In this document: positions 1 to 61,751 of the stretch, piece by piece
How positions within the stretch are numbered: the stretch's first letter is position 1
Layout: each line of letters starts with the position of its first letter
Sequence record: MN176217
Length of the DNA: 64,000 bases
From: Escherichia phage vB_Eco4M-7
Reading direction: 5' to 3' (one strand)
Notes under the pieces: generated by a model
What the model was told of the DNA's origin: nothing
What the model saw: the letters and a program-made list of their open reading frames with translations, nothing else
Databases searched by the model: none
Program-made: the position numbers and the translations under genes

Positions 1-34
1 GACGCTGATCAGACTTTAATTCAATGGGTAAGGT

Positions 35-460
35 TTGATAACACTGGCGGCGGCAAATATCGCTACTATGGCGACGAGCGATTCACCACTAAATTCTATA
101 AGGTACTCGACCATGGCTCATGTTAAAGACGAAGTGTTGTATGGCGCAGAAATTAAGAAGCGCGTGCGTGAGATGGCTTCCGGTGGCACGCTGCTGCCGC
201 CGCGCGTTCGATGCGACCATGTGATTGGCGTATCCGGCACGAAGGAGATGGGCGTGTTGGTAAAAGACATTCGCATTGGCGATGTCATGGTCATCGACCG
301 ACAAGCGCGCGTCGTTATCCAGGTACAGCCGAACGATGATGAAGGTTGTGTCCTATTGAAGCTGAAGAAGCTTTCATCAAGCCCAGCGAAGGCCGTCATC
401 AAGAAGGTTTGGCCCGAAGGATTACGCAAACTCATCCGTCGACCCGTGGAGAATGTTTAA
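35..460 (+). CDS. hypothetical early protein
   Basis: ORF track, 141 aa; first gene of a long plus-strand run of small coupled ORFs; no recognisable motif. Confidence 0.45.
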   Translation: MITLAAANIATMATSDSPLNSIRYSTMAHVKDEVLYGAEIKKRVREMASGGTLLPPRVRCDHVIGVSGTKEMGVLVKDIRIGDVMVIDRQARVVIQVQPNDDEGCVLLKLKKLSSSPAKAVIKKVWPEGLRKLIRRPVENV

Positions 461-696
461 TGGAAGATTATATTAACGCCATGTATATGGCATTCTATGT
501 CGTGCAACTTCCCAATGGCGCGGTATTCTATGGCGAGTATACCTTTGACGTTCAATATGACGTTTCAGAGCGTACAGTGTTAACAAGGGAGTTGATTGCG
601 GACCTTAAGGACGACATAAAACGCGTCGCGCGGCAGCAGTTCAATTTGGATGACACAGTCATCGTTCGAATTACCGGAATAACAGAGGTGCAGTGA
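460..696 (+). CDS. hypothetical early protein
   Basis: Internal ATG at 460 (MEDYINAMY...) overlaps upstream stop (TAATGG); ORF track frame 346..696. Confidence 0.45.
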   Translation: MEDYINAMYMAFYVVQLPNGAVFYGEYTFDVQYDVSERTVLTRELIADLKDDIKRVARQQFNLDDTVIVRITGITEVQ

Positions 697-1025
697 TGAC
701 CCGTGATCAGATACTCGCCGCGCACAGACGCGGATCAGTAAAAGACATCTGGAAAAGACACAACTCATTTGCCGAAGCCTATTACTTCTTAAAGAAGTGC
801 ATAAAAGAGAATGTGAGGATGGGCGATACCGTTTTGACATTCAACCTTTTGTCTTATGGCAATAAGCTTAATGCAATATATGCTTGTCGCCTTGCAAGCA
901 TGAGGTTTGATGCAGGCAGCGACGGAGAGTTAACCATCTATCGATTCTCTCACCGGACGGGTGATACAAAGATAACAAGGACAAGGCACGAGATAGAGAT
1001 TGACCTACTCCACTATGTAAAATGA
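693..1025 (+). CDS. hypothetical early protein
   Basis: ORF track 110 aa; start overlaps upstream stop (ATGA). Confidence 0.5.
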   Translation: MMTRDQILAAHRRGSVKDIWKRHNSFAEAYYFLKKCIKENVRMGDTVLTFNLLSYGNKLNAIYACRLASMRFDAGSDGELTIYRFSHRTGDTKITRTRHEIEIDLLHYVK

Positions 1026-1030
1026 ATATC

Positions 1031-1063
1031 AAAAAGGTGAGCTAAATGCTTGCCTTTTCTTTT
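1031..1063 (+). terminator. rho-independent terminator-like hairpin (copy 1 of repeated cassette)
   Basis: AAGGTGAGC / GCTTGCCTT stem with G-U wobbles (1034-1056) followed by T-rich run; same 25-mer repeated at 2285. Confidence 0.5.
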
Positions 1064-1078
1064 ATCAATACTTATACT
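1050..1078 (+). promoter_or_regulatory. sigma70-like promoter TTGCCT-N17-TATACT
   Basis: -35 TTGCCT 1050-1055 (inside 3' arm of the hairpin), -10 TATACT 1073-1078, upstream of ORF 1111. Confidence 0.45.
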
Positions 1079-1110
1079 CTTTTCATCAAGACGAACAAGT
1101 GAGGTGAATT

Positions 1111-1428
1111 ATGATTTACTTAGGCATCGACAAGGAACAAGACGAGCGGTTAGGAAGCGTGTTAAACGTAGACTTGAACACAGCTGTACACATTAAGCCT
1201 TGGCCAGAGGCGCACCCCGACGTAGTTGTACCCGTTGCGCCTTGGACGCGTTACGTGGCCATTGACGATGACGGTCTTGTTCATTGTTATTCAGAAAAAC
1301 CGACATACTTCGAAAAGTATCGCCAATGGCTCATGACTGGATGGGCAAAGGTGCGCTGTTGCGGCGAAGTCGGTCTGGAAGGCTGGAGCTTCGAGGCTAG
1401 TGAATCGTTTGTCGAGGTGCAATTATGA
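1111..1428 (+). CDS. hypothetical early protein
   Basis: ORF track 105 aa; RBS GTGAGGTG upstream. Confidence 0.55.
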   Translation: MIYLGIDKEQDERLGSVLNVDLNTAVHIKPWPEAHPDVVVPVAPWTRYVAIDDDGLVHCYSEKPTYFEKYRQWLMTGWAKVRCCGEVGLEGWSFEASESFVEVQL

Positions 1429-1643
1429 ATGCCGCGCTGGGTAAGTTGTCATTCAACAAGCGTAACGAGCTGCGCATGGTGTCGCGCTTCCAGTTTGTAT
1501 TGAACTCGATGTCGAATCTTGCCATCACGATGCTTCGCGCTGATTGCCCTGCTGAAAAGCGTGAGACTTTATTTGAACGTCACAACCAATTACGAAAGGC
1601 TGCTTATAAGCTGCAGCAATATGCTATGGAGTATGCAAAATGA
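1425..1643 (+). CDS. hypothetical early protein
   Basis: ORF track 72 aa; ATGA overlap with upstream gene. Confidence 0.5.
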   Translation: MNAALGKLSFNKRNELRMVSRFQFVLNSMSNLAITMLRADCPAEKRETLFERHNQLRKAAYKLQQYAMEYAK

Positions 1644-2023
1644 GAATGAAGCGTTGCCCTTACTGCCACGATGTAATGCACCTTCCACACAAAGAGTTTG
1701 TGCAGCACATGACTAACTGTGATAAGAATCCTAAGAGCGAAAGCCAACTTGAAGAAAGAATGTTCTTGGTGTCATTCAAAGCTTCTGCTTATGAAGTGCA
1801 ACGTTCTTACGGCGCACCAAGTACGATTTACTGCCCAACAACATTGAGAAGTGACATTGACTCAATTCAGCTTGCGGCCTGGATTAACGTTAAGGAAGGA
1901 ATCACGCCGCACTTTATTGCACGCATCCAATCTCAGATTCTACAAATCAAGCGCGAATACAACCGTGACATCACTGAAGTGAAGGTGTTGTCTATCACAC
2001 CGATGAATAAGGAGTTGCCGTGA
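1640..2023 (+). CDS. hypothetical protein with N-terminal CxxC...H...C zinc-ribbon-like motif
   Basis: ORF track 127 aa; MRMKRCPYCHDVMHLPHKEFVQHMTNCD. Confidence 0.5.
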   Translation: MRMKRCPYCHDVMHLPHKEFVQHMTNCDKNPKSESQLEERMFLVSFKASAYEVQRSYGAPSTIYCPTTLRSDIDSIQLAAWINVKEGITPHFIARIQSQILQIKREYNRDITEVKVLSITPMNKELP

Positions 2024-2280
2024 ACAAGGGTCCGATGACTAAGTTAGCCGTTGCCGCGCGGAAGCTTCGACAAGCCGTTAATGGGTCGCGGCCCGTGGTG
2101 TTAACACTCGACGACGCAAAGGCACTGGTAGAGCTACTCGACGAGCACAACCGACGCAAGAATCTGGAGAACACATTACGCTGGCGCGTTACTCCGAAAG
2201 GGCGGGAGAGCGAAAAGAAAGCTTACTTGCGGCGTAAACTAAGGTCGGTCGGCCTTCACGAAGAGGCGAAGAATATTTAA
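2020..2280 (+). CDS. hypothetical basic protein
   Basis: GTG start 6 nt after AGGAG; overlaps upstream stop; 86 aa. Confidence 0.45.
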   Translation: MNKGPMTKLAVAARKLRQAVNGSRPVVLTLDDAKALVELLDEHNRRKNLENTLRWRVTPKGRESEKKAYLRRKLRSVGLHEEAKNI

Positions 2281-2286
2281 TTCAAA

Positions 2287-2316
2287 AAGGTGAGCTAAAT
2301 GCTTGCCTTTTTATTT
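2287..2316 (+). terminator. rho-independent terminator-like hairpin (copy 2)
   Basis: Exact repeat of the 1031-1058 hairpin, followed by T run. Confidence 0.5.
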
Positions 2317-2330
2317 GCCTGTATTATACT
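2303..2330 (+). promoter_or_regulatory. sigma70-like promoter TTGCCT-N16-TATACT
   Basis: -35 TTGCCT 2303-2308, -10 TATACT 2325-2330; RBS AAGGAG at 2344. Confidence 0.45.
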
Positions 2331-2352
2331 TAGTTCATCAAGCAAAGGAGAA

Positions 2353-2661
2353 ATGAGTATGAGTTACGACGAAAGGTTTGGCAGAAGCGGATTATTTCAT
2401 GACGCTGTACACAAAGACAGCAAAGATGTTGTCTGCGCATTCAAGGTTGATTCTTACGGTACACTGAAACCTTTTAAGGTCGGCGAAACATACAAGCTGT
2501 TTCACGGCTGGTTGACGCGTCGCAACAACTTGCCTGACATGGAAGTCTGGTGGATAGAATACAAGGGTCAGGCTCATCGTTGCAAGGTTGTAGAGGTGCG
2601 CGGCGTGGAATACTATCAATCTGTTATCAGCGGCTTTGTTTTTAAAGAGGGTGAGCTATGA
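2353..2661 (+). CDS. hypothetical protein (FKVG-x-TY paralog family)
   Basis: ORF track frame 2299..2661 trimmed to ATG after AAGGAG; shares FKVGETYKLF motif with ORF 3646..3987. Confidence 0.5.
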   Translation: MSMSYDERFGRSGLFHDAVHKDSKDVVCAFKVDSYGTLKPFKVGETYKLFHGWLTRRNNLPDMEVWWIEYKGQAHRCKVVEVRGVEYYQSVISGFVFKEGEL

Positions 2662-2978
2662 GTACCGAAGCGATGAAGAAAAAGATTTTGAACGCTTTGC
2701 AAGAAGCCGTGAACTGTGGTGCAATTAAAGAGTTCAAGGAGACGCAAGAAGGCGGTGAGCCAGTATTCTTCTTTAAGAATAAAAAGGACGGTGTTGCAGC
2801 AATCATGCTATTAAAGAATAGCGATGACACATTTGTTCTTTGCGTCGGCGGGTATGACCTTGTTGCAGACGATATATTCATAACCTGTGCTGGCAGCCTT
2901 GACACTGTTCTGACTTTTTCGCGTCGCGACATCCGTGTTGCAACGTTCGGAGGGAAATATTATGACATCCAACCTTAA
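2658..2978 (+). CDS. hypothetical protein
   Basis: ORF track 106 aa; ATGA overlap. Confidence 0.5.
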   Translation: MSTEAMKKKILNALQEAVNCGAIKEFKETQEGGEPVFFFKNKKDGVAAIMLLKNSDDTFVLCVGGYDLVADDIFITCAGSLDTVLTFSRRDIRVATFGGKYYDIQP

Positions 2979-3126
2979 AGCCCGTTTGTTATTCATCAAG
3001 CTGCATGTGCCATATAAGATTAGTAAGCGCACCTGGCTTAACATTTACAACCGCGGCGGCGACCGTTGTTTGTACAAGGCAAAGCGGCGCAAGAAGGTAT
3101 ATTCTTACACAACATCAATCAAATAA
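2962..3126 (+). CDS. small basic hypothetical protein
   Basis: ATG at 2962 after GGAGGG; in frame with ORF track 2935..3126. Confidence 0.3.
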   Translation: MTSNLKARLLFIKLHVPYKISKRTWLNIYNRGGDRCLYKAKRRKKVYSYTTSIK

Positions 3127-3142
3127 ATAGGATAAGACAACA

Positions 3143-3646
3143 ATGAAAATCGAACAACTCGAAGCAGTATTGGAAATGGCTGTGAAGGCAGGCGCAATCA
3201 GAAGCTATAGCCGCGAGAAGTCGGATGACGCTGCGCACTTTTGTCGCAACTTCTATATTGTCGGCAACCTTAACGACCACTACACCATCGAGTGGTATAC
3301 TAATATGATGACGCTTAAGTCGCGCACCATGGAGCTTTGGTGCGATGACATCTGCTTATCCAACACCCATCCATCCTACGACGTTGCGTTGGCATTCTAT
3401 TACGGAAGCCGTCAACCTGTCGCCCACATCGGTGAGAAGCATGAGCATCTTAAGGCGCGACCAGAGGAATCAATGGAAGGTTGGATTGAATGGGCTGGCG
3501 GCAAGAATCCGGTGCCTGGTAAGAAGGTCATGTTGATGTGGAGGAATGAAGAGAAGTCTTCTTATTCATCCAATTCAGAAGGATGGCTATGGCAGCACAA
3601 CGGAAGCGTTTATGACATCATTGCTTATCGCGTCGTGGAGGAATAA
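3143..3646 (+). CDS. hypothetical protein (shares C-terminal NPVPG...AYRVV domain with 4790..5221)
   Basis: ORF track 167 aa; C-terminus GGKNPVPGKKVMLMWRN...YDIIAYRVVEE. Confidence 0.55.
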   Translation: MKIEQLEAVLEMAVKAGAIRSYSREKSDDAAHFCRNFYIVGNLNDHYTIEWYTNMMTLKSRTMELWCDDICLSNTHPSYDVALAFYYGSRQPVAHIGEKHEHLKARPEESMEGWIEWAGGKNPVPGKKVMLMWRNEEKSSYSSNSEGWLWQHNGSVYDIIAYRVVEE

Positions 3647-3987
3647 TGGAAGAGCAAGAAGGCCGTGAGCTCACGTTCGACGAGCAGATGCAAGAGCTTC
3701 AGCGCACATCGCCGCTGCGCGGTAAGGTTGTTGACATCGAGGCGAGCGAATCCAATCTCACCCAGTGGCGACTCAAGTGCACCAGCACAAGCAAGGATAT
3801 GTTAAGCTTCAAAGTCGGTCAAACCTATTTGCTTTATGAGGCAAAAGGACTTATTATTGATGGAAGGCAAATTGTCTTCACAGTAGTCAGCGGAATGCGT
3901 TGGTTCGTGAAGCGTGATGTCGAGGGCCGTGACATGTTTGTCGCAGGCTTTCCAGAAGCAAGATTCCAATTGGAGAAGGTTAAATGA
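3646..3987 (+). CDS. hypothetical protein (FKVG-x-TY paralog family)
   Basis: ORF track 113 aa; SFKVGQTYLLYEAKG. Confidence 0.5.
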   Translation: MEEQEGRELTFDEQMQELQRTSPLRGKVVDIEASESNLTQWRLKCTSTSKDMLSFKVGQTYLLYEAKGLIIDGRQIVFTVVSGMRWFVKRDVEGRDMFVAGFPEARFQLEKVK

Positions 3988-5754: not shown

Positions 5755-6180
5755 AGAACATTGATTCGTGTGTTTTGAAGAATGGAATGTGTACAATTGG
5801 TCGCTTTACGCGGCCTTTTTGTCGTTTGGGTCGTGTTTTGTGATAGAATAATTATGACGAGGTGTTTTATTTATTAATTGTGCGGAAATATTTAGAAATA
5901 TATACAAACAGGATTGTTAATATTTTAATAGTGTATGGCTATTGGTCCGTGGTGTTTGTTAGATTCTATCTATGGATTGGATTTTCTTGGGTCGTGGAAC
6001 GTGGTTTTGAACACATTTGATACGCCTAAAATACGGTTAAAAATTAAGCGTATCATGGCTGCAGGCCGCGCCGTTCCTGGATTCCTATTTTCAAAAGTGG
6101 TACACCCTTACGTCATGATACGTCATGGTTTTCTATCCGTAAGAGTGTACAGCCCTTGCCGCGCCTGGCTTGTACATTAA

Positions 6181-6326
6181 TCTTACGGATGATACGGATA
6201 AAACTGAGCATCGTTATATATAGAATTCGAAAAATTAATTAACTCCATTTTAAAAACATTTATATTAATTTTTTTCATATCCTCATACTTATGTTAATTT
6301 ATATATTTAACGTATCATCCGTAAGA
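6181..6326. repeat. inverted-repeat element A: TCTTACGGATGATACG arms flanking ~110 bp AT-rich core
   Basis: 6181-6199 TCTTACGGATGATACGGAT; 6311-6326 is its reverse complement; extra ATACG boxes at 6018, 6112, 6355-6378. Confidence 0.8.
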
Positions 6327-6606
6327 TATAAGTAAAAACAAAGACTTGCGGCAATACGGATGATACGTCATGATACGCTTCAACCAGCCAGCAGCGGCTA
6401 AGTCATTGATTTGCATAACAAGCGGCGAAAGGGATGGATTTCTTTTATACGTATCAAACAGTACACCACGCACCACGGTCCGCAATCCTATTTGCACTAT
6501 GATTTGTGTACGTTTATAGCCATAATGAACATCAATCTGCACTTGAATATAATGTCCATCCATTGTATAATTCACACTATTAATTTGCACTATGGGATTT
6601 TGCACT

Positions 6607-7080
6607 ATGAGTCAAGATTATGTAGCGATGCCTGAAGACTTTGAAGACCCGCGATTCGCAGAGCACAATCAGGCTTTATTCGATGAGTTCATTGACCTTG
6701 TTATTCAGGGCCATGACATGCGCGCAGCTTTTGCACTAGTATTTGGAATGGAAGTTGCAACGGATAACTACACTGGCCAGCGAATCCTTTGCACGCAACG
6801 CAATCCATACTACAAGATGCGCTTCAAAAAGCGTATGGAAGAGATGCCACTCAAGGATTTGTGGAGCGTAAAAGGTGCAATTCACAATTTGGTCAAGCTT
6901 GTGCGTGATCCAGAAGTCGCAGCGTCAGCCAAGCTTAATGCTATTCGTGAACTGAATATCATCTACGACATCACGATGATTGATGAAAACGGCAACAGCA
7001 AGATGGGCCGTTCCATGGACGATTTCTACAAGGATTTTGGAGAGGCGGCCAAAGAAGGCGAGCAATTCTCCCGCCACTAG
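6607..7080 (+). CDS. putative HTH DNA-binding protein, possibly terminase small subunit-like
   Basis: ATG at 6607 overlaps the third TTTGCACTAT motif; N-terminal FDEFIDLVIQGHDMRAAFALVFG resembles small-terminase HTH (recalled pattern, not searched). Confidence 0.35.
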   Translation: MSQDYVAMPEDFEDPRFAEHNQALFDEFIDLVIQGHDMRAAFALVFGMEVATDNYTGQRILCTQRNPYYKMRFKKRMEEMPLKDLWSVKGAIHNLVKLVRDPEVAASAKLNAIRELNIIYDITMIDENGNSKMGRSMDDFYKDFGEAAKEGEQFSRH

Positions 7081-7099
7081 CCAATTTGCACTATAAAAC

Positions 7100-7133
7100 G
7101 GCCCTAGAACACATTGTCTCCAATTCTAGGGCC
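7100..7133. other. 10-bp perfect stem-loop GGCCCTAGAA/TTCTAGGGCC
   Basis: Inverted repeat just after the stop of 6607..7080; no obvious U-tract. Confidence 0.5.
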
Positions 7134-7508
7134 ATCGGTAATACGACGGGGAAGGTTGCAACCGTAAACGCGTTAGAAAGTGTATTATTATAAGTCATCT
7201 TTTAGTCACCTTACGTAACAATTTACGACCTTCAACCGTCCAATCGAACGACTCCACCAGCAGATTCGCACTATAACCTAAGACCACTCGACCCTTCTCG
7301 TTATCGACCCGCCAGCAAGTCTCGAATAGCATTCGATTTGCACTATTAACTATTGCTGCGACTCGCGTAGGATAAGCGCAATTTGCACTATGGTCGTAAA
7401 GGGATAAGGTGCGACCACTTCCGATGGACAACGTAGCGATGAGAATGAGCGTATTCATAAGCCACCAATTTGCACTATGAAAAGCGACCCCGAAGGGCCG
7501 CCATTCGA

Positions 7509-8135
7509 TTAGATAATCTGGAAGGTGTAGGACTTGTTGCCGAACTCGAAGTTCAAGCGTCCAGCTTCTTTAAGCTTCATGCGGAAGCGAATATGCTTGC
7601 TATCCGGCAAGCCCAGCGCGGCGAACGCTACGCGGACCGATTTGAACTCGCCTACACCCTCGACCATAACGCCGTTACGGGTGAGACGCTTTTGCGCCAC
7701 TTCTTTATTATCCCAACTTTTTGCAATACCTTTGCTATTCGAACGGCGATGGGAAGGAATTGCAATTTTATTCGCTCCAACCGGAGCATCATTAAGGCCG
7801 CTTTTAACGAAGGCTTCATATTCTTCGTCGGTCATCGCGTCGAGTTCTTCCTGGGTCGGCTCGGCCTTTTTAACGACCGCGCGCGCCTTATGCGTTTTTA
7901 CATCACTGGACACTTCCTCGCGAGACTTTGCGTCTGGGATGGGCGATTCGTTGGACGGATCATCGAGCGCGTTTAAGGATTCGATTAACGCGATTACGCG
8001 AGTCTCAGCGGTGCGACGGTCCGCGAATTTTTTAATCGGCTTTGAGCCTGAATTTTCGTTATAGAATGCAACGAGGTCGGCGGTCTTGGTTGCGATTACG
8101 TCGCCGCTGGTGGAGAAACGATTCAAACTGGCCAT
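7509..8135 (-). CDS. hypothetical protein
   Basis: ORF track 208 aa; strong RBS AGGAG 8 nt upstream of ATG; protein-like composition unlike the overlapping plus-strand ORF. Confidence 0.6.
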   Translation of the reverse strand: MASLNRFSTSGDVIATKTADLVAFYNENSGSKPIKKFADRRTAETRVIALIESLNALDDPSNESPIPDAKSREEVSSDVKTHKARAVVKKAEPTQEELDAMTDEEYEAFVKSGLNDAPVGANKIAIPSHRRSNSKGIAKSWDNKEVAQKRLTRNGVMVEGVGEFKSVRVAFAALGLPDSKHIRFRMKLKEAGRLNFEFGNKSYTFQII

Positions 8136-8180
8136 AATAAACTCCTAGTTTGGGAGCGGTGTCAACGACCTATTCGTTAA

Positions 8181-8243
8181 CTCATCCGTCCCGATATGAG
8201 TACATTATAATATAGTGTAGAAAAAAAGTAAAGCACTTTTTCG
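8181..8243 (-). promoter_or_regulatory. promoter-like element (minus-strand copy)
   Basis: Reverse complement reads CGAAAAAGTGCTTTAC...TACACT...TATAAT, near-identical to the 8664 element. Confidence 0.5.
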
Positions 8244-8275
8244 ATAAAAATGAGATAAATTATTTTATCTTTTTT

Positions 8276-8318
8276 CTTTACTTCTTCGTACACTCGCGTA
8301 TACTTGTTTATATCGAGA
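8276..8318 (+). promoter_or_regulatory. promoter-like element (copy 2)
   Basis: CTTTACTTCTTCGTACACT (exact 19-mer shared with 8674) + TATACT 8299-8304 + GTTTATATCGAGA. Confidence 0.5.
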
Positions 8319-8360
8319 CGGGCGATGGCCCTTCCTTCTAATAGCATCGGGAGTTTTATT

Positions 8361-8663
8361 ATGACCACTTTAATCTCTTCTATCCTTACTTACGACGAAG
8401 ACCGTTTAACCGTTCGCTCTCTTATCGCCGCCGTTAACGCGGAACTAGAATCCACCATTATTAAGGTCCGCGCGGTCGCTTTCGTCGGCCTTTCCTTCGA
8501 CGATATTAAGTACGCCGAACGTAGCGTCATCCGCTTCGCGAAGACCGATGACGAAGCCGTTACCCTTATCGAGACGGTTACGCCGCGCGGCGAAGCGTTA
8601 ATTATCGTCGAGTATATCGACGTAGAAGGCGATAAGGCTTATAAATATTTTATCGCAAAATAA
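8361..8663 (+). CDS. hypothetical protein
   Basis: ORF track frame 8304..8663, start moved to ATG 8361 after GGGAG; CpG-rich codon choice. Confidence 0.5.
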   Translation: MTTLISSILTYDEDRLTVRSLIAAVNAELESTIIKVRAVAFVGLSFDDIKYAERSVIRFAKTDDEAVTLIETVTPRGEALIIVEYIDVEGDKAYKYFIAK

Positions 8664-8717
8664 CGAAAAAGTGCTTTACTTCTTCGTACACTAAGACTAT
8701 AATGTTTTATATCGAGA
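8664..8717 (+). promoter_or_regulatory. promoter-like element (copy 3)
   Basis: CGAAAAAGTGCTTTACTTCTTCGTACACT, TATAAT 8698-8703, GTTTTATATCGAGA. Confidence 0.5.
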
Positions 8718-8770
8718 GGGGATGAGGTAGCGAATAGGTCGCTACCCTCCCGACTAACTAGGAGAATATT

Positions 8771-9061
8771 ATGATTACTTTAGCCGCTATCCGCGACGCT
8801 CGCGTCGAGACTTCCGAAAATTCCAACGTATTTGGCGAAAAGCTTAAAAACGTCTATCTTTTTAACGTAGACGCAACTATCGAGCCTATTTATGAGCCGA
8901 TCAACTTCCTCGACCTTTACAAGTATCGCGACGAGGACATCGTATCATCCCGCGTAACGATCAACGGCTTCGTCTATACGATTACCGAAATCGGCGGCGA
9001 ATATCTCGCGGTCCCGCAACTCGGCGGCGAAGTAACTTTCTTTAAAATCGTAAGCCTGTAA
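8771..9061 (+). CDS. hypothetical protein
   Basis: ORF track 96 aa; RBS AGGAGAA upstream. Confidence 0.55.
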   Translation: MITLAAIRDARVETSENSNVFGEKLKNVYLFNVDATIEPIYEPINFLDLYKYRDEDIVSSRVTINGFVYTITEIGGEYLAVPQLGGEVTFFKIVSL

Positions 9062-9072
9062 GGAGAAGGAAG

Positions 9073-9282
9073 ATGACTAATATGAATAATTCTCTTAACG
9101 CGCGCGCCCATCGCACCGCCGTAATCGATATGTTCCGCGAGCTTAAGGAATTATGCGATAATATGAACGCGATGTTATCCATCGGCGGCTGGGGATACGA
9201 AGAAGAGGTTAAATACGCGGTTATGCGTCGCCGTCGCGATAACGTCCTTGGACAAATTAAACGCGCCGGATTATTCCTTTAA
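9073..9282 (+). CDS. hypothetical protein
   Basis: ORF track 69 aa; RBS GGAGAAGGAAG upstream. Confidence 0.5.
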   Translation: MTNMNNSLNARAHRTAVIDMFRELKELCDNMNAMLSIGGWGYEEEVKYAVMRRRRDNVLGQIKRAGLFL

Positions 9283-9307
9283 TTATAATTACCCACCGTT
9301 ACTAATA

Positions 9308-9333
9308 GGCCGCGCTTAGTCGCGGCTTTTCTT
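9308..9333 (+). terminator. rho-independent terminator
   Basis: GCCGCG-CTTAGT-CGCGGC hairpin followed by TTTTCTT. Confidence 0.6.
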
Positions 9334-9453
9334 CGTCCCTATCTCGATGCGCTTCTCCGCGAAAACTCCTTTATCCTTCCCTTCGTCGTCGCATAATCTT
9401 CGTCGAGATGCGCCTTAGTTCGCATAACAGGTATTACGTTAAATGGAGAACAT

Positions 9454-9526
9454 CGCGTAAGTCGTTGTTTTATATAGACACATATATCGGACCGTTAGGG
9501 CGGGTCGCGTAAGTCGTTGTTTTATA
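9454..9526 (+). repeat. direct repeat of 21-mer CGCGTAAGTCGTTGTTTTATA (two copies)
   Basis: Copies at 9454-9474 and 9506-9526. Confidence 0.8.
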
Positions 9527-9987
9527 AAGGCGCAAAACTTTCCCTTCGTTCCGAACTAAAACGAGAAATATGCCGACCCTTCGCCCGAAAATAGTACGCA
9601 TGCGAAATTACATGCATCTCGAATAATCCCCACCGATACTATCCTACACGCAATCATTCGCTTTCGAATCATTATGCTTCATATTATCATGCGTCGAATC
9701 ATTCGCTTTCGAATTGTAACGCTGGAAACTGTAACGGCGATTGATTATTGCGTTCGTGTGGTTTTTATGGCATGGGTCTTTTGGTGCGTTTTGCTACTTG
9801 ATGGAATTTGCGGTACACTAATCAAAATACGACACATTTGGTCCACTAACTTTTCAAAGAAAAAGTCCTAGACAGTACCGTACTATTTTGTACCCACAGG
9901 AAATTTGCAGTACACTCCTGCGCAGCAGGCAAAATAAAGGGCCGCACTAAGCGACCCACGATTCACGGTTAAAGCAACATCCACCCA

Positions 9988-11577: not shown

Positions 11578-13917
11578 TTATTTTGCTGCTTTCAGCGCGG
11601 CTATCTCTGCCTCGAGAACCTCGATGCGGTCCATCAATGCAAGAATAGCCTCGTGGTGCAGTGCTGCTGCTACGCCTGGTGTGTTGACAGATTTTATGTT
11701 ATCCAACGTCGAACCGTCGCGCAGAGTAACAGGCGATGACTGTGTTTCAGATACTGCTTCAGGAAAGTCTTTCTCTACATCCTGGGCGATGAAGCCAAAA
11801 CCGACGGAGCCATTAGTTTCCAGAGTCCATGCCACGCCTCTAATATTGCGCATCTTGACGAGTGGATCAGTGATCCGCTCAATGTTACTTTTAATACGTT
11901 CATCAGATATACTCCGCCACTCCTGACACCTTGCTATTCCATCGGAGCCAAAAAGATAAGAGGCCGCGCCGCCTGTCCCGCTGTAAACGTTCAATTGAGC
12001 GCGGTCCAGCGCGGTCGTGCTACTCCTTATGCCTCCGAGAATCCAGCTTCCGCTGTACCAGTCACCGCTGATTGAGTTTACAAAATTTCCTTCTGGAACG
12101 TTGGCATAGTTTTGAATCCTTATGGCGTTGTTTTCTGCAGCAGCAACGCCTACTGAATTAACTGGGGATGCAACAAGGTCTTTAGACCGGATATATGCAT
12201 CAACAAATATTGTTCCATCAGGGCGCAGAGTTCCAATCTGGGATGTGGAATTTGGCAACACCAATTTGCCATCTTGGTTAAATGCCCACTCTTGCACCCC
12301 ATTAGATATCACCGCACCTTGTTCAGATGTTAATCCATCAATCTTGCCGTATGCCTGCAAGAATGCTTGATACGCGATGTTCGTGCCAATCTTATATTCA
12401 GATTTTACACTACCGCCTCTGACAAGCGTTCCGGTTGCAGGTTTTACTGCGTCACCATTAATGACGCTCCAAGTCGTATTCGCGGCAACAAATCCACCAG
12501 ATGCACGAATCACCCAAACACCTTCAAAGGCATTAGGTCGAATTTCATTCGCATCATCACGTCCATAAGCGCCATTTGACAGCGATGCATCAAAGTTCAC
12601 GTCTACATAATAACCATCAGAAGTCCCGCGCATACTTCCAGCAGTTTTTACTATTTTTGGCTCAAATGCGCCATATCCTCGCGTCACGCCAGAGGTGCCG
12701 AATGCAGTAAGCATAGACACATTAGGTGAACCAGAAATATTTGGTGCAGCACTCTGCCTGACACGACCGTCGTTTGAAGATACACCTCCATCACCACGCC
12801 CGAATAAACCTGGGATTGAGCCTGCTTGAACGCCGTTGCGGTCTGGAACTCGAAATGTAGTTGTGCCGTTGCCTAATGAATACTTGCCGCGTTTCGCTGG
12901 GTCCGCTAACCAATCTGCATCAGCAATAGGCGAAAGCATTTGCGCATATGCCCAAAGTTCAGGCCAATCTGCACGATTGAGTAATTGGCCGTCAGAAACG
13001 ACTTCGTAAGGCTGGATGTAAGCACGACTGTCTCGCAAGTGGAAGTCGCCGACGCCATAGTTCATAACACCGTTCATGCTTGGGCCAACGGTGCCTGTGT
13101 TCACTAAGTTCTCAACCCAACGCTTGGTTGCAGCATCATAATCGTTTACCGGATCACCAGCAAGCGGAGTCGGCCCTTGTGGACGAATATTCAACCAAGC
13201 TTGAGCATTGTCTGCTGATCCTGTGCCGCCCATTGAAGTTGGAACGATGCTTTGATCAGCGACTTGTCCGAATCCAAAAGCAGACTTCATCCCCTGTATG
13301 GTAGTTTGACCTGTGCCGCCATTTGCGACTGGTATAACGCTTTGCGTGTTATAAACTTGAACCCAATCAGACCAGGATGATATATCGACGCTATACAACC
13401 TTTGGTATACTGTGTTTATCCAGTAAGGCGTGTATCTCTGCACACAGCTGTTCGTTGAAACTCCCGTTTGTAAAACTTCAAGTATTCCAGCTTGTTCTAC
13501 AGGATAGTTGAGTGCTGTTGACGCCCCAGCATTAGTCGGTTGGTAATATTGACCGAACCAGCTTCCGTTCAGCGCGTTAAGGTTTATGCCATTAGGAATT
13601 ACGCCAAAGTTTCGGACAGTACCCGTCAAAGTCGCGGCAGTAGTTCGAATGGAAAGCATATCACCAGCCGCCCAAGCACGCGCTGCAGTACCTTCCTGTG
13701 CACGCTGCACGGTCAGGACGTTTCCAACAACGGCTGTTACTGTGACGATTTCGAATTGGAGGCCTGTTGCGGCGTCAACGATTGTCGCCACTACACGCTC
13801 GTTTGCGCCCAAGGTCGGAAAGCCCGACCCTGAGCGAATTGTGATTGTGGTGTCTGAAGTCGTCGTTGGCTGAGCGAGCGCGACCTCAAAGTTGTTTTTG
13901 AATATTAGCCTTGGCAT
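11578..13917 (-). CDS. tail fibre/spike protein with C-terminal intramolecular chaperone (peptidase S74-like) domain
   Basis: 779 aa; Gly/Thr/Asn-rich fibre-like body; C-terminal SDERIKSNIERI...ALMDRIEVLEAEIAALKAAK resembles the autoproteolytic chaperone domain of phage fibres. Confidence 0.7.
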   Translation of the reverse strand: MPRLIFKNNFEVALAQPTTTSDTTITIRSGSGFPTLGANERVVATIVDAATGLQFEIVTVTAVVGNVLTVQRAQEGTAARAWAAGDMLSIRTTAATLTGTVRNFGVIPNGINLNALNGSWFGQYYQPTNAGASTALNYPVEQAGILEVLQTGVSTNSCVQRYTPYWINTVYQRLYSVDISSWSDWVQVYNTQSVIPVANGGTGQTTIQGMKSAFGFGQVADQSIVPTSMGGTGSADNAQAWLNIRPQGPTPLAGDPVNDYDAATKRWVENLVNTGTVGPSMNGVMNYGVGDFHLRDSRAYIQPYEVVSDGQLLNRADWPELWAYAQMLSPIADADWLADPAKRGKYSLGNGTTTFRVPDRNGVQAGSIPGLFGRGDGGVSSNDGRVRQSAAPNISGSPNVSMLTAFGTSGVTRGYGAFEPKIVKTAGSMRGTSDGYYVDVNFDASLSNGAYGRDDANEIRPNAFEGVWVIRASGGFVAANTTWSVINGDAVKPATGTLVRGGSVKSEYKIGTNIAYQAFLQAYGKIDGLTSEQGAVISNGVQEWAFNQDGKLVLPNSTSQIGTLRPDGTIFVDAYIRSKDLVASPVNSVGVAAAENNAIRIQNYANVPEGNFVNSISGDWYSGSWILGGIRSSTTALDRAQLNVYSGTGGAASYLFGSDGIARCQEWRSISDERIKSNIERITDPLVKMRNIRGVAWTLETNGSVGFGFIAQDVEKDFPEAVSETQSSPVTLRDGSTLDNIKSVNTPGVAAALHHEAILALMDRIEVLEAEIAALKAAK

Positions 13918-13955: not shown

Positions 13956-14297
13956 TTAATTTCTTTTGAGAGGAATATGACGGTTGCTGTCATTATTTGG
14001 TTTAATAATGAGCATAAAAACGATTAGAAAGATGATGGCTGATATACTTAATTCAATCAGCGCGGCTTGAGATATGGATTGATCTTCATGATACTGCTTT
14101 TGCATTTCCGCTTTCTTTTGAGCGCAAACTTCAGGTGATATATAATCGCCTTTTGAGTTGCCATAATAAATCTCGCCATTCTCAGAAATAAGCCTGCCGC
14201 AAATATCCGTTTCAGCCTTTGCACTTGACATCATAATAACGGTGCCAATGATAGCAGCGATTGTCCAGATTAGCAGTTGTGATAAAGTGTTGTTCAT
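13956..14297 (-). CDS. membrane protein (N-terminal signal/TM and C-terminal TM)
   Basis: ORF track 113 aa; hydrophobic segments at both ends. Confidence 0.5.
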   Translation of the reverse strand: MNNTLSQLLIWTIAAIIGTVIMMSSAKAETDICGRLISENGEIYYGNSKGDYISPEVCAQKKAEMQKQYHEDQSISQAALIELSISAIIFLIVFMLIIKPNNDSNRHIPLKRN

Positions 14298-14492
14298 GAT
14301 AACCTCTTTAATTCCCTTCCCGATGTGGGAAGGGTGAATATTATTTTACGCGAAAGAATAGGCGCGTGCCACACAGCGAGTCCCAACGGCCCTCACCATC
14401 CCATATCGACCCAACACCAGCAGCGATTGGTCCAGCAGAATTGGCGGCATTGGCCCAGGCGAGTCGTTTAAGCTTCCAACTGCACCAACGAT

Positions 14493-14744
14493 TCACAGTT
14501 CGCCTCCAGACTTCAAAATTAATCCCGCATAGATTATTGCCAGAGCTAAAGGCTCACCGTCGCCAGCCTCTCTATTCTCTTTGATTTGAAGAGTATCCTT
14601 AAGGAATTGCAACTGAACGTTAAATTCATTTTCAATCCCAAGCGTCACAGCCAATTCTTTTACAGAATCTGCATATGCCTTGTCTAGCACTTCTTTTGGT
14701 ACTTTTAAAGTTAATTCACTTGCCATTTTCTTTCCACTCCACAA
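14493..14744 (-). CDS. hypothetical protein
   Basis: ORF track 83 aa; alternative start at 14726. Confidence 0.45.
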   Translation of the reverse strand: MWSGKKMASELTLKVPKEVLDKAYADSVKELAVTLGIENEFNVQLQFLKDTLQIKENREAGDGEPLALAIIYAGLILKSGGEL

Positions 14745-14937
14745 ATGTGCTGCCGCTTGTTTCTCTGTTTAGCAGGTATCTGCCGCGCATCCCATGAAGG
14801 CTGAACTCAACCGTCGATGGATTAGATTTTGAAAGCCATATAGGTTGCCCGTCGAATGGACCGCCTACGCATGTATATTTCGCTTTTGGCTCACTCCTTT
14901 TGGGCCGTTTTGCCCGCTCTTTGATTGATAGTCTCAT
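14716..14937 (-). CDS. hypothetical basic protein
   Basis: ORF track 73 aa. Confidence 0.4.
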   Translation of the reverse strand: MRLSIKERAKRPKRSEPKAKYTCVGGPFDGQPIWLSKSNPSTVEFSLHGMRGRYLLNRETSGSTFVEWKENGK

Positions 14938-15152
14938 CAGTCTTCACCTTGAGATTCCAGACAAGTAAGGACAAGCCACGTCATCGGAAGAATCAAAACC
15001 AGAGAAATGAGGGACCAGATAGACCAGCACAAGATGACAGACTTGAATGTGTGAACGTCGCCAAACACAGCAGTAAAACAGAATCCCATTACAAACGCAA
15101 TAGCTGTGGAATGGTTGTCTATGGCTTTGATGGCACGGTCGATGAGTTTCAT
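14937..15152 (-). CDS. small membrane protein (two hydrophobic helices)
   Basis: ORF track 71 aa; AIAFVMGFCFTAVF and LISLVLILPMTWLVL. Confidence 0.45.
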   Translation of the reverse strand: MKLIDRAIKAIDNHSTAIAFVMGFCFTAVFGDVHTFKSVILCWSIWSLISLVLILPMTWLVLTCLESQGED

Positions 15153-15240
15153 ATTACCTCCGGTTTTGAGTTAATATGATTATAACGCAGACTTTCAGAA
15201 AGGCAAACTTTTTGTGAATTATGCCGTCCATGGCATTGTA

Positions 15241-15471
15241 TCAGTGTGAAGACACAATTAGTGTGCCACTTCCCTTTGCGAAAATTTCAACTCCTGGCGG
15301 GATTTCGATTGTGCCGTTAACAGCAATGCCGATCAGCTTGTCATCGGCCTTTTCCTCAAAACAAATTTCAGCAGCGCCGCCGCGAACTTGAATGAGTGCG
15401 CCGGATACGTTTTCGGCAACGGAAATAACGGAAGTATAAGAGGGAGTGAGTTGAATGTTGACTAGGGCCAT
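15241..15471 (-). CDS. small hypothetical protein, possibly cupin-like beta-barrel
   Basis: ORF track 76 aa; Gly-rich pattern loosely reminiscent of small cupins. Confidence 0.35.
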   Translation of the reverse strand: MALVNIQLTPSYTSVISVAENVSGALIQVRGGAAEICFEEKADDKLIGIAVNGTIEIPPGVEIFAKGSGTLIVSSH

Positions 15472-15588: not shown

Positions 15589-17049
15589 ATGAATAAAATA
15601 TTAACACATAATTGGAAATTCATGTACCAGTTGAATCCTGCTTTAAAAGAAGTCTGGAAGACAAAAGCGCGATACAAAGTAATATACGGCGGTCGTGCAT
15701 CTTCCAAATCGCACGATGCCGCTGGTTTTGCTATTTATTTGGCGGCAAACTTCAAATTAAAATTCCTTTGCGTTCGACAATTCCAGAACAAGATTTCTGA
15801 ATCTGTATATACTCTATTAAAAGACAAAATAGAGATTTCTGATTTCAAAGATGAGTTCAATTTATTAAAGAACTCTATTGAACATAAAAGAACTAAATCT
15901 GAATTTCTATTTTACGGTATCGCACGTAACGTTGATGAAATTAAATCAACAGAAGGTGTTGACGTCCTTTGGTTGGAAGAAGCGCACGCGCTTACTGAAG
16001 AACAGTGGGACATTATTGAGCCGACAATCCGTAAAGAAGGGTCCGAAATATGGATCATCTTTAACCCTGATGAAGAGGCCGATTTCGTCTACCAAAACTT
16101 TGTTATGCGACCGCCGAAGAATGCCATTGTTAAAAAGATAAACTGGCAAGATAATCCATTCTTGTCGCAAACAATGCTGGACGTTATCGCAGGTATGTAC
16201 GAGCGTGACCCGAAAAAGGCAGAGCACGTTTATGGCGGTGTGCCGAAGACTGGCGGCGACAAATCTGTAATCAACCGCGCATTCGTTAAGGCCGCGCTAA
16301 ATCTCCACAAACACCCTATGCTGGGGTGGAGTTTGTCAGGGTCTAACCGTATAGGCTTTGACGTAGCGGACGATGGCGACGACCTTAACGCCACTGCATT
16401 CGTCACAGGAAACGTATTGCGCGGCATCAAGACGTGGGAAGGTCTGGAAGATGAATTGTTGAAATCGGCAAGCGGAGTTTGGAAAGATGCGCTTACATTT
16501 GGCGCTTCTATAACTTATGACGCCATCGGTGTCGGCGCTTTTGCTGGTTCAAAATTTGATGAACTGAACGAGTATGCAATACATGAAAATCCATCATTTC
16601 CAAGAATCGAATTTAATGCGTTCAATGCGCAAGGGTCTGTTGATGATCCTGATGACGTTTTTCTTGAATTACCACACGTTGAAATACTCAATAAAGACCA
16701 TTTCGCAAACATAAAAGCGCAAAAGTGGACTGAAATTGCAGAGAGATTCAGAAAGACATACGAATATGCAACTGGGCAAGCCGTATATCCGACTGATGAA
16801 TTGATTTCAATCGACACCGATGGTATACCGGAACTTGGGATTCCAGCTTGGACCACTGAAGAGATTGAGACGTTTCTTTTTGAGATGTCAGCGCCGCGCA
16901 AAGATACGTCTGTTCTTGGCAAGTTCAAAGTTGAATCCAAAAAGGATATGGCAAAGCGTGGAGTTAAATCACCTAACAAAGCGGACGCAGCAATCATGGC
17001 ATTGATGAAACCAATCGTTGCAGCATCCGGCTTCTTCTCTAACCTTTAA
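15589..17049 (+). CDS. terL: terminase large subunit
   Basis: 486 aa; Walker A YGGRASSKSH near N-terminus; start may be ATG 15622 because a TATAAT box abuts 15589. Confidence 0.8.
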   Translation: MNKILTHNWKFMYQLNPALKEVWKTKARYKVIYGGRASSKSHDAAGFAIYLAANFKLKFLCVRQFQNKISESVYTLLKDKIEISDFKDEFNLLKNSIEHKRTKSEFLFYGIARNVDEIKSTEGVDVLWLEEAHALTEEQWDIIEPTIRKEGSEIWIIFNPDEEADFVYQNFVMRPPKNAIVKKINWQDNPFLSQTMLDVIAGMYERDPKKAEHVYGGVPKTGGDKSVINRAFVKAALNLHKHPMLGWSLSGSNRIGFDVADDGDDLNATAFVTGNVLRGIKTWEGLEDELLKSASGVWKDALTFGASITYDAIGVGAFAGSKFDELNEYAIHENPSFPRIEFNAFNAQGSVDDPDDVFLELPHVEILNKDHFANIKAQKWTEIAERFRKTYEYATGQAVYPTDELISIDTDGIPELGIPAWTTEEIETFLFEMSAPRKDTSVLGKFKVESKKDMAKRGVKSPNKADAAIMALMKPIVAASGFFSNL

Positions 17050-17052
17050 CAA

Positions 17053-17292
17053 TCAAAGCATTCCGTGCTGAAGGTCGAGTTTTCTTGCAGCAAATGACCT
17101 GGCACGGAATCGCTTACCAGCTCTTACTGCTTGCCGAATCTTCTTTTGCATACACTTACGGTCAAAATCGTTGCGGTCAACGGCTTCGAGTAAATCCCGA
17201 CGCAAAGCACCTAGTGTCGACTTTTCGGATACTTCTATGCCCAGCGCGGCTGCAACATCTTTCAAAACATCGAGTTCGGTTAACGTTCTCAT
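17053..17292 (-). CDS. hypothetical protein
   Basis: ORF track 79 aa; opposite strand between terminase and portal. Confidence 0.45.
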   Translation of the reverse strand: MRTLTELDVLKDVAAALGIEVSEKSTLGALRRDLLEAVDRNDFDRKCMQKKIRQAVRAGKRFRARSFAARKLDLQHGML

Positions 17293-17705
17293 TTGATAAT
17301 CCCCTTGATGTCTGATTCTGCCATAAAGATTGGAGTGCCGCTGCCAGGAACAATAGAGCGCGTTACTTTGTCGAACATATCGTTCTCTTCAACTTGAATA
17401 CGATAAAATTTATTTTTGGATGAAGATGGGCACAATCCAATAAATTTACCAATGCCGCGAACGCATTCATCTTCAAAGTATACTGTTTCACCTTGAATGG
17501 ATTCGATGTTTTCAACCGGATACACCTTGCGACCTAAAAGCCATTCATCCATGGTCGCCTGCAACACGTTTCGCGCATCCAAAATCCAAGGGTCAACTGT
17601 GGCACCTTCATATCGCGCAGCAGTGGCTTTTGCCAGCTCTTCATATTCGCACACATTTACTACTTCGCCTTGATGAAGGACGACAAATACAATTGTTGTG
17701 CTCAT
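17289..17705 (-). CDS. hypothetical protein
   Basis: ORF track 138 aa; 4-nt overlap with downstream gene. Confidence 0.5.
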   Translation of the reverse strand: MSTTIVFVVLHQGEVVNVCEYEELAKATAARYEGATVDPWILDARNVLQATMDEWLLGRKVYPVENIESIQGETVYFEDECVRGIGKFIGLCPSSSKNKFYRIQVEENDMFDKVTRSIVPGSGTPIFMAESDIKGIIK

Positions 17706-59241: not shown

Positions 59242-60087
59242 TTATTCCGCTTGATCACCGTCTTCAGCATCGTCGTTGGATTCAACATCGACAAACTCGA
59301 TGTGGCCCATCTCTTCCAGCTTGCTCAGGTAGGAGCGAACAGAAGCGCCAAACAGTTGATCTTTAACTTTTTCGCCCAGCTCATCGATAGACTGTGCCAC
59401 ACCAACTTCGCCTTCTTTGATCGCCGCCAGAACGCGTCCACGGGTGGAATGCTCTTGCGGCTGGCTCAGGCCATTGCCAGTGTAGATGAAGTGAGTGGCT
59501 TTTGCACGACGCTGACCGTTTGCCTTTTTAGCAGCCTTACGTTCTGCGATGGCTTTGCGACGTTCTTCAGCTTCTTTCTTACGCTGTTCTTTCTGCTGTT
59601 CTGCAGCTTCTTTCGCCGCAATCTTAGCAGCTTCACGCTCTGCCTTGCGTTTCGCTTTAGCTTCTTCTTTGGCCTTCTCTTTTTCGGCCTTCGCTGCAGC
59701 ACGGGCTTGATCACGCTCTGCTTTCTTGGCCGCAGCCTGCTCAGCTTTCAGGCGCTTGGCTTCTTCTTTAGCCTTTGCCTTTTCGATTTCTTTTGCTGCT
59801 TTAGCGGCTTCACGCTCTGCTTTCTTGGCAGCAGCCTTTTCTGCACGCTCTTTAGCTTTCTTAGCTGCTTCTTCAGCACGCTTCTGAGCCTTCTCATCAG
59901 CAGCCTGCTTGCGTTTCAGCGCAGCTTCTTCACGCTTGGCTTGTTTTTCCTGCTCACGCTTCTGGCGTTTTTCTTCGGCTTCTTTCTTTTTAGCCAGGCG
60001 TTTTTCTTCAGCCACGCGACGACGTTCTGCTGCGGCTGCTTGTTTTTCTTCTTTAGATAATACTTTGATTGCTTCGGCCATATTCAC
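59242..60087 (-). CDS. Lys/Ala/Glu-rich low-complexity protein with globular C-terminal domain
   Basis: 281 aa; ~200 aa of KAEREAAKAAKE-type repeats. Confidence 0.55.
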   Translation of the reverse strand: MNMAEAIKVLSKEEKQAAAAERRRVAEEKRLAKKKEAEEKRQKREQEKQAKREEAALKRKQAADEKAQKRAEEAAKKAKERAEKAAAKKAEREAAKAAKEIEKAKAKEEAKRLKAEQAAAKKAERDQARAAAKAEKEKAKEEAKAKRKAEREAAKIAAKEAAEQQKEQRKKEAEERRKAIAERKAAKKANGQRRAKATHFIYTGNGLSQPQEHSTRGRVLAAIKEGEVGVAQSIDELGEKVKDQLFGASVRSYLSKLEEMGHIEFVDVESNDDAEDGDQAE

Positions 60088-61425: not shown

Positions 61426-61751
61426 TATAACTCCACTACGCTGTCAAGGTCCAGATATACTGGAATAAAATGGCAATCTTCTTTTCGTTCAAACATCTCA
61501 CCATCAACATGGCTGAAGAAAACAGTTGTGTTTGGTATCTTCCATCCTTTCTCGTCGCGCACTAAGTACGCCATGGATTCAACAGGGATGTACAGCGATA
61601 CCGGATTTGCGGCAAAAATAAATTTGATTCTGTCTGGTTGACCCAGGAATCGCATGATTGTTAGGCTTGAATTCAATCTTGTATTAAGGAAGGACTCAAC
61701 GATTCCGACGTGTGTTGCACGTTCGCGTTGCTTCGTCTCTTTTTCGTTCAT
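61425..61751 (-). CDS. hypothetical protein
   Basis: ORF track frame 61425..61760; ATG 61751 with AAAGG RBS. Confidence 0.45.
   Translation of the reverse strand: MNEKETKQRERATHVGIVESFLNTRLNSSLTIMRFLGQPDRIKFIFAANPVSLYIPVESMAYLVRDEKGWKIPNTTVFFSHVDGEMFERKEDCHFIPVYLDLDSVVEL

Follow-up and report, generated by a model that had tools for sequence, protein, structure and literature searches.

A probable small terminase gene of Escherichia phage vB_Eco4M-7 near the predicted left end of a long terminal repeat and within a one-strand motif array

Analysis of the 64,000-nt window (the whole stretch of Escherichia phage vB_Eco4M-7 DNA considered here, record MN176217) indicated that the gene at positions 6607–7080 very probably encodes the small terminase subunit (TerS) of this Wifcevirus and is orthologous to the gene for the decameric TerS of Pseudomonas phage E217, as judged from sequence comparison and a predicted structure. 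By homology with phages WFC, Mansfield, and Kyle, the terS start codon would lie within a direct terminal repeat (DTR) of ~3.6 kb, 360 nt from its left physical end. The gene is spanned by an array of short ATTTGCACTA repeats, which is a real, selected cis-element, conserved in the clade and confined to one strand. The identity of TerS and the separation of the two packaging genes are already known, at the family level from E217, whose structure was released in 2022, and at the genus level from the annotation of Mansfield in 2019. The additions made here are a corrected gene annotation, the placement of the gene within the terminal repeat, which is by homology, and the clade-conserved one-strand cis-element.

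Wifceviruses are myoviruses of E. coli and Shigella with genomes of 66–72 kb and are distant kin of the Pseudomonas Pbunaviruses (PB1-like) (bioRxiv 10.1101/2024.09.12.612763). The region 5800–8200 of the window was 92%–96% identical at the nucleotide level to the Wifceviruses vB_EcoM_WFC, F13, SP13, Ro157lw, ECML-117, and FEC19. The value of the annotation is that the gene has been left as "hypothetical protein" in most Wifcevirus records (nearly all of those other than the Mansfield record, including vB_Eco4M-7n) and is missed by the curated family libraries; the paper describing vB_Eco4M-7 listed the large subunit alone for DNA packaging. Wifceviruses have been proposed for use against E. 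coli O157, and the positions of terS, the genome end, and the terminal repeat bear on the design and rebooting of synthetic genomes, the insertion of tags, and the judgement of transduction risk. The features of the region are collected in Table 1.

Table 1. Features of the terS region and of the interval up to terL (window positions; predicted features are marked as such)
Feature	Position	Strand	Basis or remark
Predicted direct terminal repeat (DTR)	6247..9862		Homology to WFC, Mansfield, Kyle
AT-rich region with the predicted left end	6170..6337		19% GC at 6200–6299
Motif array, nine copies of (A/G)AT-TTGCACTA-(T/C)	6489..7480	+	
Array copies 5' of or within terS	6489–6502, 6582–6595, 6597–6610 (overlaps the terS ATG), 6728–6741	+	
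Array copies 3' of terS	7083–7096, 7264–7276 (TTCGCACTA variant), 7334–7348, 7380–7393, 7467–7480	+	
Two overlapping sigma-70-like promoter candidates 5' of terS	6526..6571	+	TGAACA-16-TATAAT and TTGAAT-17-TATAAT; 10/12 matches each (consensus scan, pattern matches)
terS, probable small terminase subunit, 157 aa	6607..7080	+	Probable ortholog of Pseudomonas phage E217 gp78 (PDB 7UXE)
GC-rich hairpin GGCCCTAGAA...TTCTAGGGCC, likely two-way terminator	7100..7133		Inverted repeat, 10-nt arms, 100% complementary
Conserved 208-aa gene, convergent with terS, function unassigned	7509..8135	-	phrog_4730
Conserved element GGAATTTGCGGTACACTAATCA beside the DTR right edge	9803..9825	+	Second partial copy at 9900–9916
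779-aa tail-fibre gene between terS and terL	11578–13917	-	phrog_6921
terL, large terminase, 486 aa, partner of TerS	15589..17049	+	8508 nt from terS stop to terL start

The terS reading frame starts from the ATG at 6607, and an alternative in-frame ATG at 6592 would give a longer version of the protein. The 474-nt version is the one annotated in WFC and Mansfield, and homologues with 28%–96% identity start at the position equivalent to 6607 (alignment A2). In a phmmer search against the sequences of solved structures, the product had a single significant match, 7UXE, "Small terminase" (E = 2.2e-34, query residues 3–147), and the remaining, non-terminase matches had E values of about 0.9. A profile built from 20 homologues likewise recovered only 7UXE among the solved structures (E = 2.3e-51). 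This 189-aa protein, present as ten chains per entry, is gp78 of Pseudomonas phage E217; it shares 41% identity with the terS product over ~145 residues, and tblastn revealed likewise similar proteins in ~300 Pbunavirus genomes. In the PHROGs database, the product falls into phrog_4783 (E = 3.7e-75), a family labelled "unknown function", while the match to phrog_1595, "terminase small subunit", was only marginal (E = 0.086). No Pfam or NCBIfam family was matched up to E = 1, whether of terminases or of transcription factors, the latter being the outcome that the first-pass annotation had set beforehand as refuting its reading. This empty result is due to the curated models missing the TerS lineage of the window, and it is no argument against the function.

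The AlphaFold2 model of the protein (pLDDT 76.7) comprises helices up to residue 119, a beta-hairpin at residues 123–133, and a disordered C-terminal tail. These parts correspond to the fold of a TerS protomer with an N-terminal helical DNA-binding domain, a helical-hairpin oligomerisation core, a short beta stalk, and a flexible C-terminal tail. The last residue, His, is nearly invariant among the homologues, most of which end in K-H. The best fold match of the predicted model was E217 TerS (7UXE), and the next ones were also small terminases, those of PaP3, NV1, and SF6. Moreover, the Mansfield ortholog (361–834) is annotated as "terminase small subunit" following an HHpred match to SF6 TerS. 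The candidacy of this gene as a small terminase, proposed in the first-pass annotation from the letters alone, is thus borne out by the 7UXE sequence match, the top fold match, and the HHpred-based annotation in Mansfield. Sigma-70-like promoter candidates on one side and a likely hairpin terminator on the other make terS appear to be a self-contained unit; the hairpin stands between terS and the convergent minus-strand genes, and the homologous site in WFC is annotated as a terminator on both strands.

The E217 protein is the closest known relative with a solved structure, and it forms a decameric ring (Lokareddy et al. 2022, J Mol Biol 434:167799, cited by the review PMC9611059), compared with the nonamer of SF6; a complementation assay for E217 is also mentioned in the review. 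The two systems share the predicted protein fold, a convergent gene of ~205 aa, a TerL gene located 7–9 kb downstream past minus-strand genes, and the position of terS at a mapped or predicted end or pac site. With 157 aa against the 189 aa of E217 TerS, the protein encoded in the window is smaller by 32 residues and is devoid of most of the E217 C-terminal extension. The repeats flanking the gene also differ (ATTTGCACTA in the window, GTAATTTGG in the Pbunaviruses), as do the reported genome ends, a DTR of ~3.7 kb in Wifceviruses and circularly permuted headful DNA in the Pbunavirus JG024. The Wifcevirus ortholog CPT_Mansfield_002 (MK903282) has the same 474 nt, the same 360-nt offset from the left DTR end predicted by PhageTerm, and the same motif copies at nearly equal positions; the sole difference is the annotation. 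No sequence similarity of the window TerS to the G1P-type small terminases of SPP1 and SF6 (2CMP, 3ZQP) was detectable by profile search.

The two packaging genes are far apart. TerL was identified by matches to Pfam Terminase_3 (PF04466, E = 3e-37) and to TIGR01547 (NCBIfam), and among solved structures to the E217 TerL nuclease (8DKR, E = 6e-84) and Sf6 gp2 (4IDH, E = 4e-64). All ORFs flanking terL (13956–15471 and 17053–17705) are on the minus strand, and no terminase family was found among their PHROGs matches, in agreement with the earlier statement that no small-terminase candidate sits beside terL; the 8.5-kb spacing given there was also correct (8508 nt). The same order, TerS followed by minus-strand genes and then TerL, was found in E217 (7.7 kb) and in the metagenomic relative L011 (a gap of 9.3 kb), and the layout near TerS was equal in L010 and L012–L015. 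The E217 terS gene is described as far from terL in a review (PMC9611059). In the E217 record (66291 bp), TerL is at 1233–2615 and TerS at 59299–59868, but across the record junction, 7.66 kb separate the TerS stop from the TerL start. The apparent "58 kb" between these genes would therefore reflect the choice of the point at which the record begins, if the genome is circularly permuted like that of JG024 or has its left end just 5' of terS, as suggested by the read starts of JG024. The separation of terS and terL is ancestral to the Pbunavirus–Wifcevirus lineage rather than the result of a recent insertion.

The first-pass annotation had supposed that the packaging genes are split by an accessory block. 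The split holds and is conserved in the relatives, but the block is not purely accessory because it contains the 779-aa tail-fibre gene. In addition to this gene, the 8.5-kb interval comprises the rest of the ~3.6-kb terminal repeat, the gene of the 208-aa protein, and small genes without assigned function. The 208-aa product is 100% identical to a vB_Eco4M-7n protein, and mass spectrometry of vB_Eco4M-7 preparations revealed vB_Eco4M-7_19 (23.0 kDa, given as 208 aa) (PMC7048862, PMC11074155). E217 gp79 (203 aa) has a similar size and the same position. Homologues of the 208-aa protein among the matches listed were all at least 91% identical, and the search of solved-structure sequences yielded no relative. 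This protein also accepted a HiBiT tag. The WFC annotation indicates a Peptidase_S74 chaperone domain in the ortholog of the 779-aa tail-fibre protein.

Another arrangement was seen in the record of Pseudomonas phage PS44 (KM434184.1; L004/L007), in which terS is present twice, at 602–1171 and 60998–61567, and TerL follows 1.3 kb after the first copy. We considered whether this is a natural variant with terS near terL, but it probably arose as an artefact of assembly, as the ~2 kb at the start of the record duplicate an internal stretch and not its end. For the same reason, that the source of the copy is internal, a true terminal repeat is disfavoured.

The genome ends of the relatives place terS close to the start of packaging. 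In the WFC record, bases 1–3784 are exactly the same as 68689–72472, and the edges of this repeat map to positions 6247 and 9862 of the window; terminal repeats of ~3.7 kb have been reported for WFC and WFH (PMC6563267). For Mansfield, PhageTerm predicted a DTR of 3673 bp, and the record was opened there (PMC6753283); this DTR begins at the exactly homologous base, ATTTTAAAA. In Pantoea phage Kyle (TerS 43% identical), an exact terminal duplication of 3603 bp starts 356 nt 5' of terS, and its first bases are similar (...TC/AYTTAAAAA, where the slash marks the DTR start). The distance from the left end of the DTR to the terS ATG is 356–360 nt in WFC, Mansfield, and Kyle. In the window, the predicted left end is at 6247, and the right end would be at ~9783 (equivalent to Mansfield and Kyle) or at 9862 (equivalent to WFC), since the right edge in WFC is 79 nt further to the right than the PhageTerm prediction for Mansfield. 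The predicted left end coincides with the centre of a palindrome (6230–6273) in the AT-rich region, and inverted TACGGATGATACG / ATCCGTAAGA-type repeats with arms at 6170–6196 and 6311–6337 border this palindrome. At the other side of the repeat, a conserved element, AATTTNNNAGTACACTAATCA, follows the right edge of the DTR at a distance of ~25 nt in both Mansfield and Kyle, and its copy in the window is at 9803–9825. This right-edge element resembles a copy of the array motif into which 4 nt have been inserted.

The Pbunavirus JG024 is reported to be circularly permuted and to use headful packaging, and 36 of its 161 long reads start at 59,376 ± 5, which was proposed as the pac site (PMC10913387). 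This pile-up of read starts is 601 nt upstream of gp79, the terS homologue of JG024. In four relatives, therefore, terS adjoins a mapped genome end or pac site, and from the ends of WFC, Mansfield, and Kyle together with the JG024 read starts, we consider this proximity to the packaging start a conserved feature. The genomes of lambda, P22, and SPP1 are likewise organised with the small terminase gene beside the packaging start.

By analogy with known TerS proteins and the related phages, the vB_Eco4M-7 protein would form a ring, and its N-terminal helical domains would contact DNA near the packaging start, which presumably adjoins terS itself. The ring could then recruit or regulate TerL, encoded 8.5 kb downstream. 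TerL would cut the AT-rich site at about 6247, and packaging would proceed rightwards.

The other component of this region is the repeat array, which the first-pass annotation had associated with the terS candidate. This association was confirmed. The exact sequence TTTGCACTA occurs eight times, always on the plus strand and within 6491–7477, and nowhere else in the 64 kb, while 0.93 ± 0.96 copies (maximum 3) are expected from shuffled sequences. The ninth copy is the variant TTCGCACTA at 7265–7273. A search with the pattern TT[TC]GCACTA revealed 52 sites in seven loci. By identity of their TerS to that of the window, these loci were the window itself (100%, nine copies), L010 (68%, six copies), L011 (50%, ten copies), L012 (43%, nine copies), L013 (51%, seven copies), L014 (51%, five copies), and L015, which is Kyle (43%, six copies). 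All 52 sites are on the terS-sense strand between -116 and +1260 relative to the terS ATG, compared with a chance expectation of about 0.15 in those intervals. No copies were found elsewhere in the seven loci, of which 8.7–64 kb each were examined. The motif was absent around terS of E217, JG024, tabernarius, and Hera. Among the IMG/VR relatives that are more distant, one has a single copy around terS and none has an array. A k-mer search of the terS surroundings in the Pseudomonas and Serratia relatives and in those from high-GC metagenomic DNA also found no ATTTGCACTA array, but it detected weaker lineage-specific repeats, for example, GTAATTTGG in the Pbunaviruses and, in Hera, three copies of a 21-mer.

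Copies of the motif are located in intergenic DNA, in terS (where TTT GCA CTA encodes F-A-L), and in the minus-strand ORF 7195–7458, in which three copies share one reading frame and each reads x-S-A-N. Therefore, the conserved unit is the DNA and not a peptide. ORF 7195–7458 is either a doubtful gene call or a sequence under two simultaneous constraints. Its 87-aa product has a signal-peptide-like N-terminus, and similar small ORFs have been called at this place in the relatives.

Instead of a packaging protein, the terS product might be an HTH-type regulator, such as an early-gene repressor or autoregulator acting on the ATTTGCACTA sites, with the likeness to E217 gp78 transferring only a putative label. 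Two motif copies between the promoter-like sites and the ATG, one of them overlapping the ATG, do occupy an operator-like position; however, the more distant relatives have no motif copy within about 35 nt 5' of the ATG. Two further points are compatible with a regulator. No curated terminase family was matched, and for E217 TerS, a review (PMC9611059) reports no appreciable DNA binding in vitro and reduced infectivity upon overexpression. Against this, no transcription-factor family was matched either, the E217 homologue is a decameric ring like other TerS and was deposited as a small terminase, and the further fold matches (PaP3, NV1, SF6) are small terminases. Moreover, four relatives have the gene right beside a mapped end of the genome or a pac site. 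We consider a regulator with no packaging role very improbable and retain the assignment as TerS.

The logo of 62 sites has no conserved -10-like element, with at most about 0.3 bits at every position outside the core, and five of the nine copies in the window point into the antisense of minus-strand genes. Reading of the motif as a promoter is therefore unlikely and was rejected. The T4 MotA box is TTTGCTTTA, and the resemblance of the array core to it is only superficial. The array could instead represent binding sites of TerS, origin iterons for the VapE-like primase-helicase encoded upstream, or a one-directional signal related to the genome end.

Binding of TerS to the ATTTGCACTA array is a tentative possibility to which we give somewhat less than even credence. 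The layout recalls that of lambda cosB, where the gpNu1 R sites lie between cosN and the Nu1 gene: in the window, a predicted genome end, short repeated sites, and the terS start are likewise found within a few hundred base pairs. Nevertheless, there is no homology to cosB, and the window is predicted to have long direct-repeat ends, as opposed to the cohesive ends of lambda. In addition, the array continues ~900 bp past the gene start and is strictly confined to one strand. It could be an undescribed extended signal within a long terminal repeat, either a landing pad of ~1 kb for the TerS decamer or a RecBCD/Chi-linked module for end protection and recombination that serves to circularise or concatemerise the genome; we regard this as rather doubtful. 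The motif array and the oriented Chi clusters of the relatives are the only parts of the present analysis that are possibly new with respect to the recognition, protection, or circularisation of genomes with long terminal repeats.

Besides the array, the window contains a second, distinct family of repeats, TATCCGTAAGA/GATACG. TGATACG / CGTATCA and ATCCGTAAGA repeats at 6018–6458 flank the AT-rich predicted left terminus at 6247 on both sides and in both orientations. Related repeats of the TATCCG(N)AAGA type flank the same region in L011 (TTATCCGCAAGA) and Kyle (ATATCCGAA). This second family could be the recognition site proper of the terminase, or an origin. In E217 and JG024 (L002/L009), GTAATTTGG repeats ~166 nt apart, along with a tandem pair, are located between -902 and +10 relative to terS; they flank the long-read-mapped pac position of JG024, and an inverted pair overlaps the terS start. 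The sequence AATTTG is contained in both GTAATTTGG of the Pbunaviruses and the Wifcevirus array motif. In Serratia phage Hera (L006), AAAAAATAAGCATGCTTTGTA occurs three times at 3520–3650, just 3' of the terS homologue, in place of the ATTTGCACTA array.

The protein might be TerS while the array serves replication: the ATTTGCACTA copies would be origin iterons for the VapE-like primase-helicase, and TerS would read the lineage-variable TATCCG(N)AAGA / GATACG repeats flanking the AT-rich cut. Short direct repeats on a single strand are typical of origin iterons, and a VapE-like primase-helicase gene is present upstream in the relatives, as is a primase-annotated gene in E217 and JG024. The distances are also in line with such a division of roles. 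The second family is found within about 230 nt of the predicted cut on both sides and in both orientations, recalling the repeats at the JG024 pac site, while the array starts 245 nt from the cut and reaches 1.2 kb away, which is far for a pac site. However, the AT-rich region with the other repeat family looks more origin-like than the array does, and the GC skew, examined as an indicator of an origin, merely tracks gene orientation. Furthermore, the known TerS sites of P22, SPP1, and lambda lie in or adjoin the TerS gene, as the array does. On balance, we consider iterons an unlikely explanation.

Finally, with TerS again correctly assigned, the array might be an end-protection or recombination module of the terminal repeat. 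A host or phage enzyme coming in from the left DNA end would read it much as RecBCD reads the Chi sites that are co-located and co-oriented in the relatives. Chi (GCTGGTGG) is present on the minus strand around terS in six to nine copies per locus in L011–L015 and in four copies in Hera, between -198 and +1615 relative to the terS ATG. These sites are intermingled with the motif copies, often directly adjoining them, and Chi in this orientation acts on RecBCD that comes in from the mapped left end. One Chi copy on the plus strand was also found in L014, and L011 and L013 have one and two same-oriented copies, respectively, further upstream. The restriction of the array to enterobacterial-type relatives, with its absence in the Pseudomonas, Serratia, and more distant IMG/VR relatives, is in line with such a module. 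However, the predicted DTR of the window contains only one minus-strand Chi (7254–7261) and one in the opposite orientation (8106–8113) facing the right end, and L010 has no such Chi around terS, so the two arrays can be uncoupled. No enzyme is known to read ATTTGCACTA, and the literature search on the motif gave nothing relevant; with TTGCACTAT as the query, it returned unrelated primers and oligonucleotides only. We consider such a module quite improbable. A scan of IMG/VR for TTTGCACTA-N20-50-TTTGCACTA, aimed at arrays beyond the present TerS family, found at least 120 stretches against a rough chance estimate of about 50, and among the matches listed, those with multiple copies were short-period tandem repeats, save for two Wifcevirus contigs.
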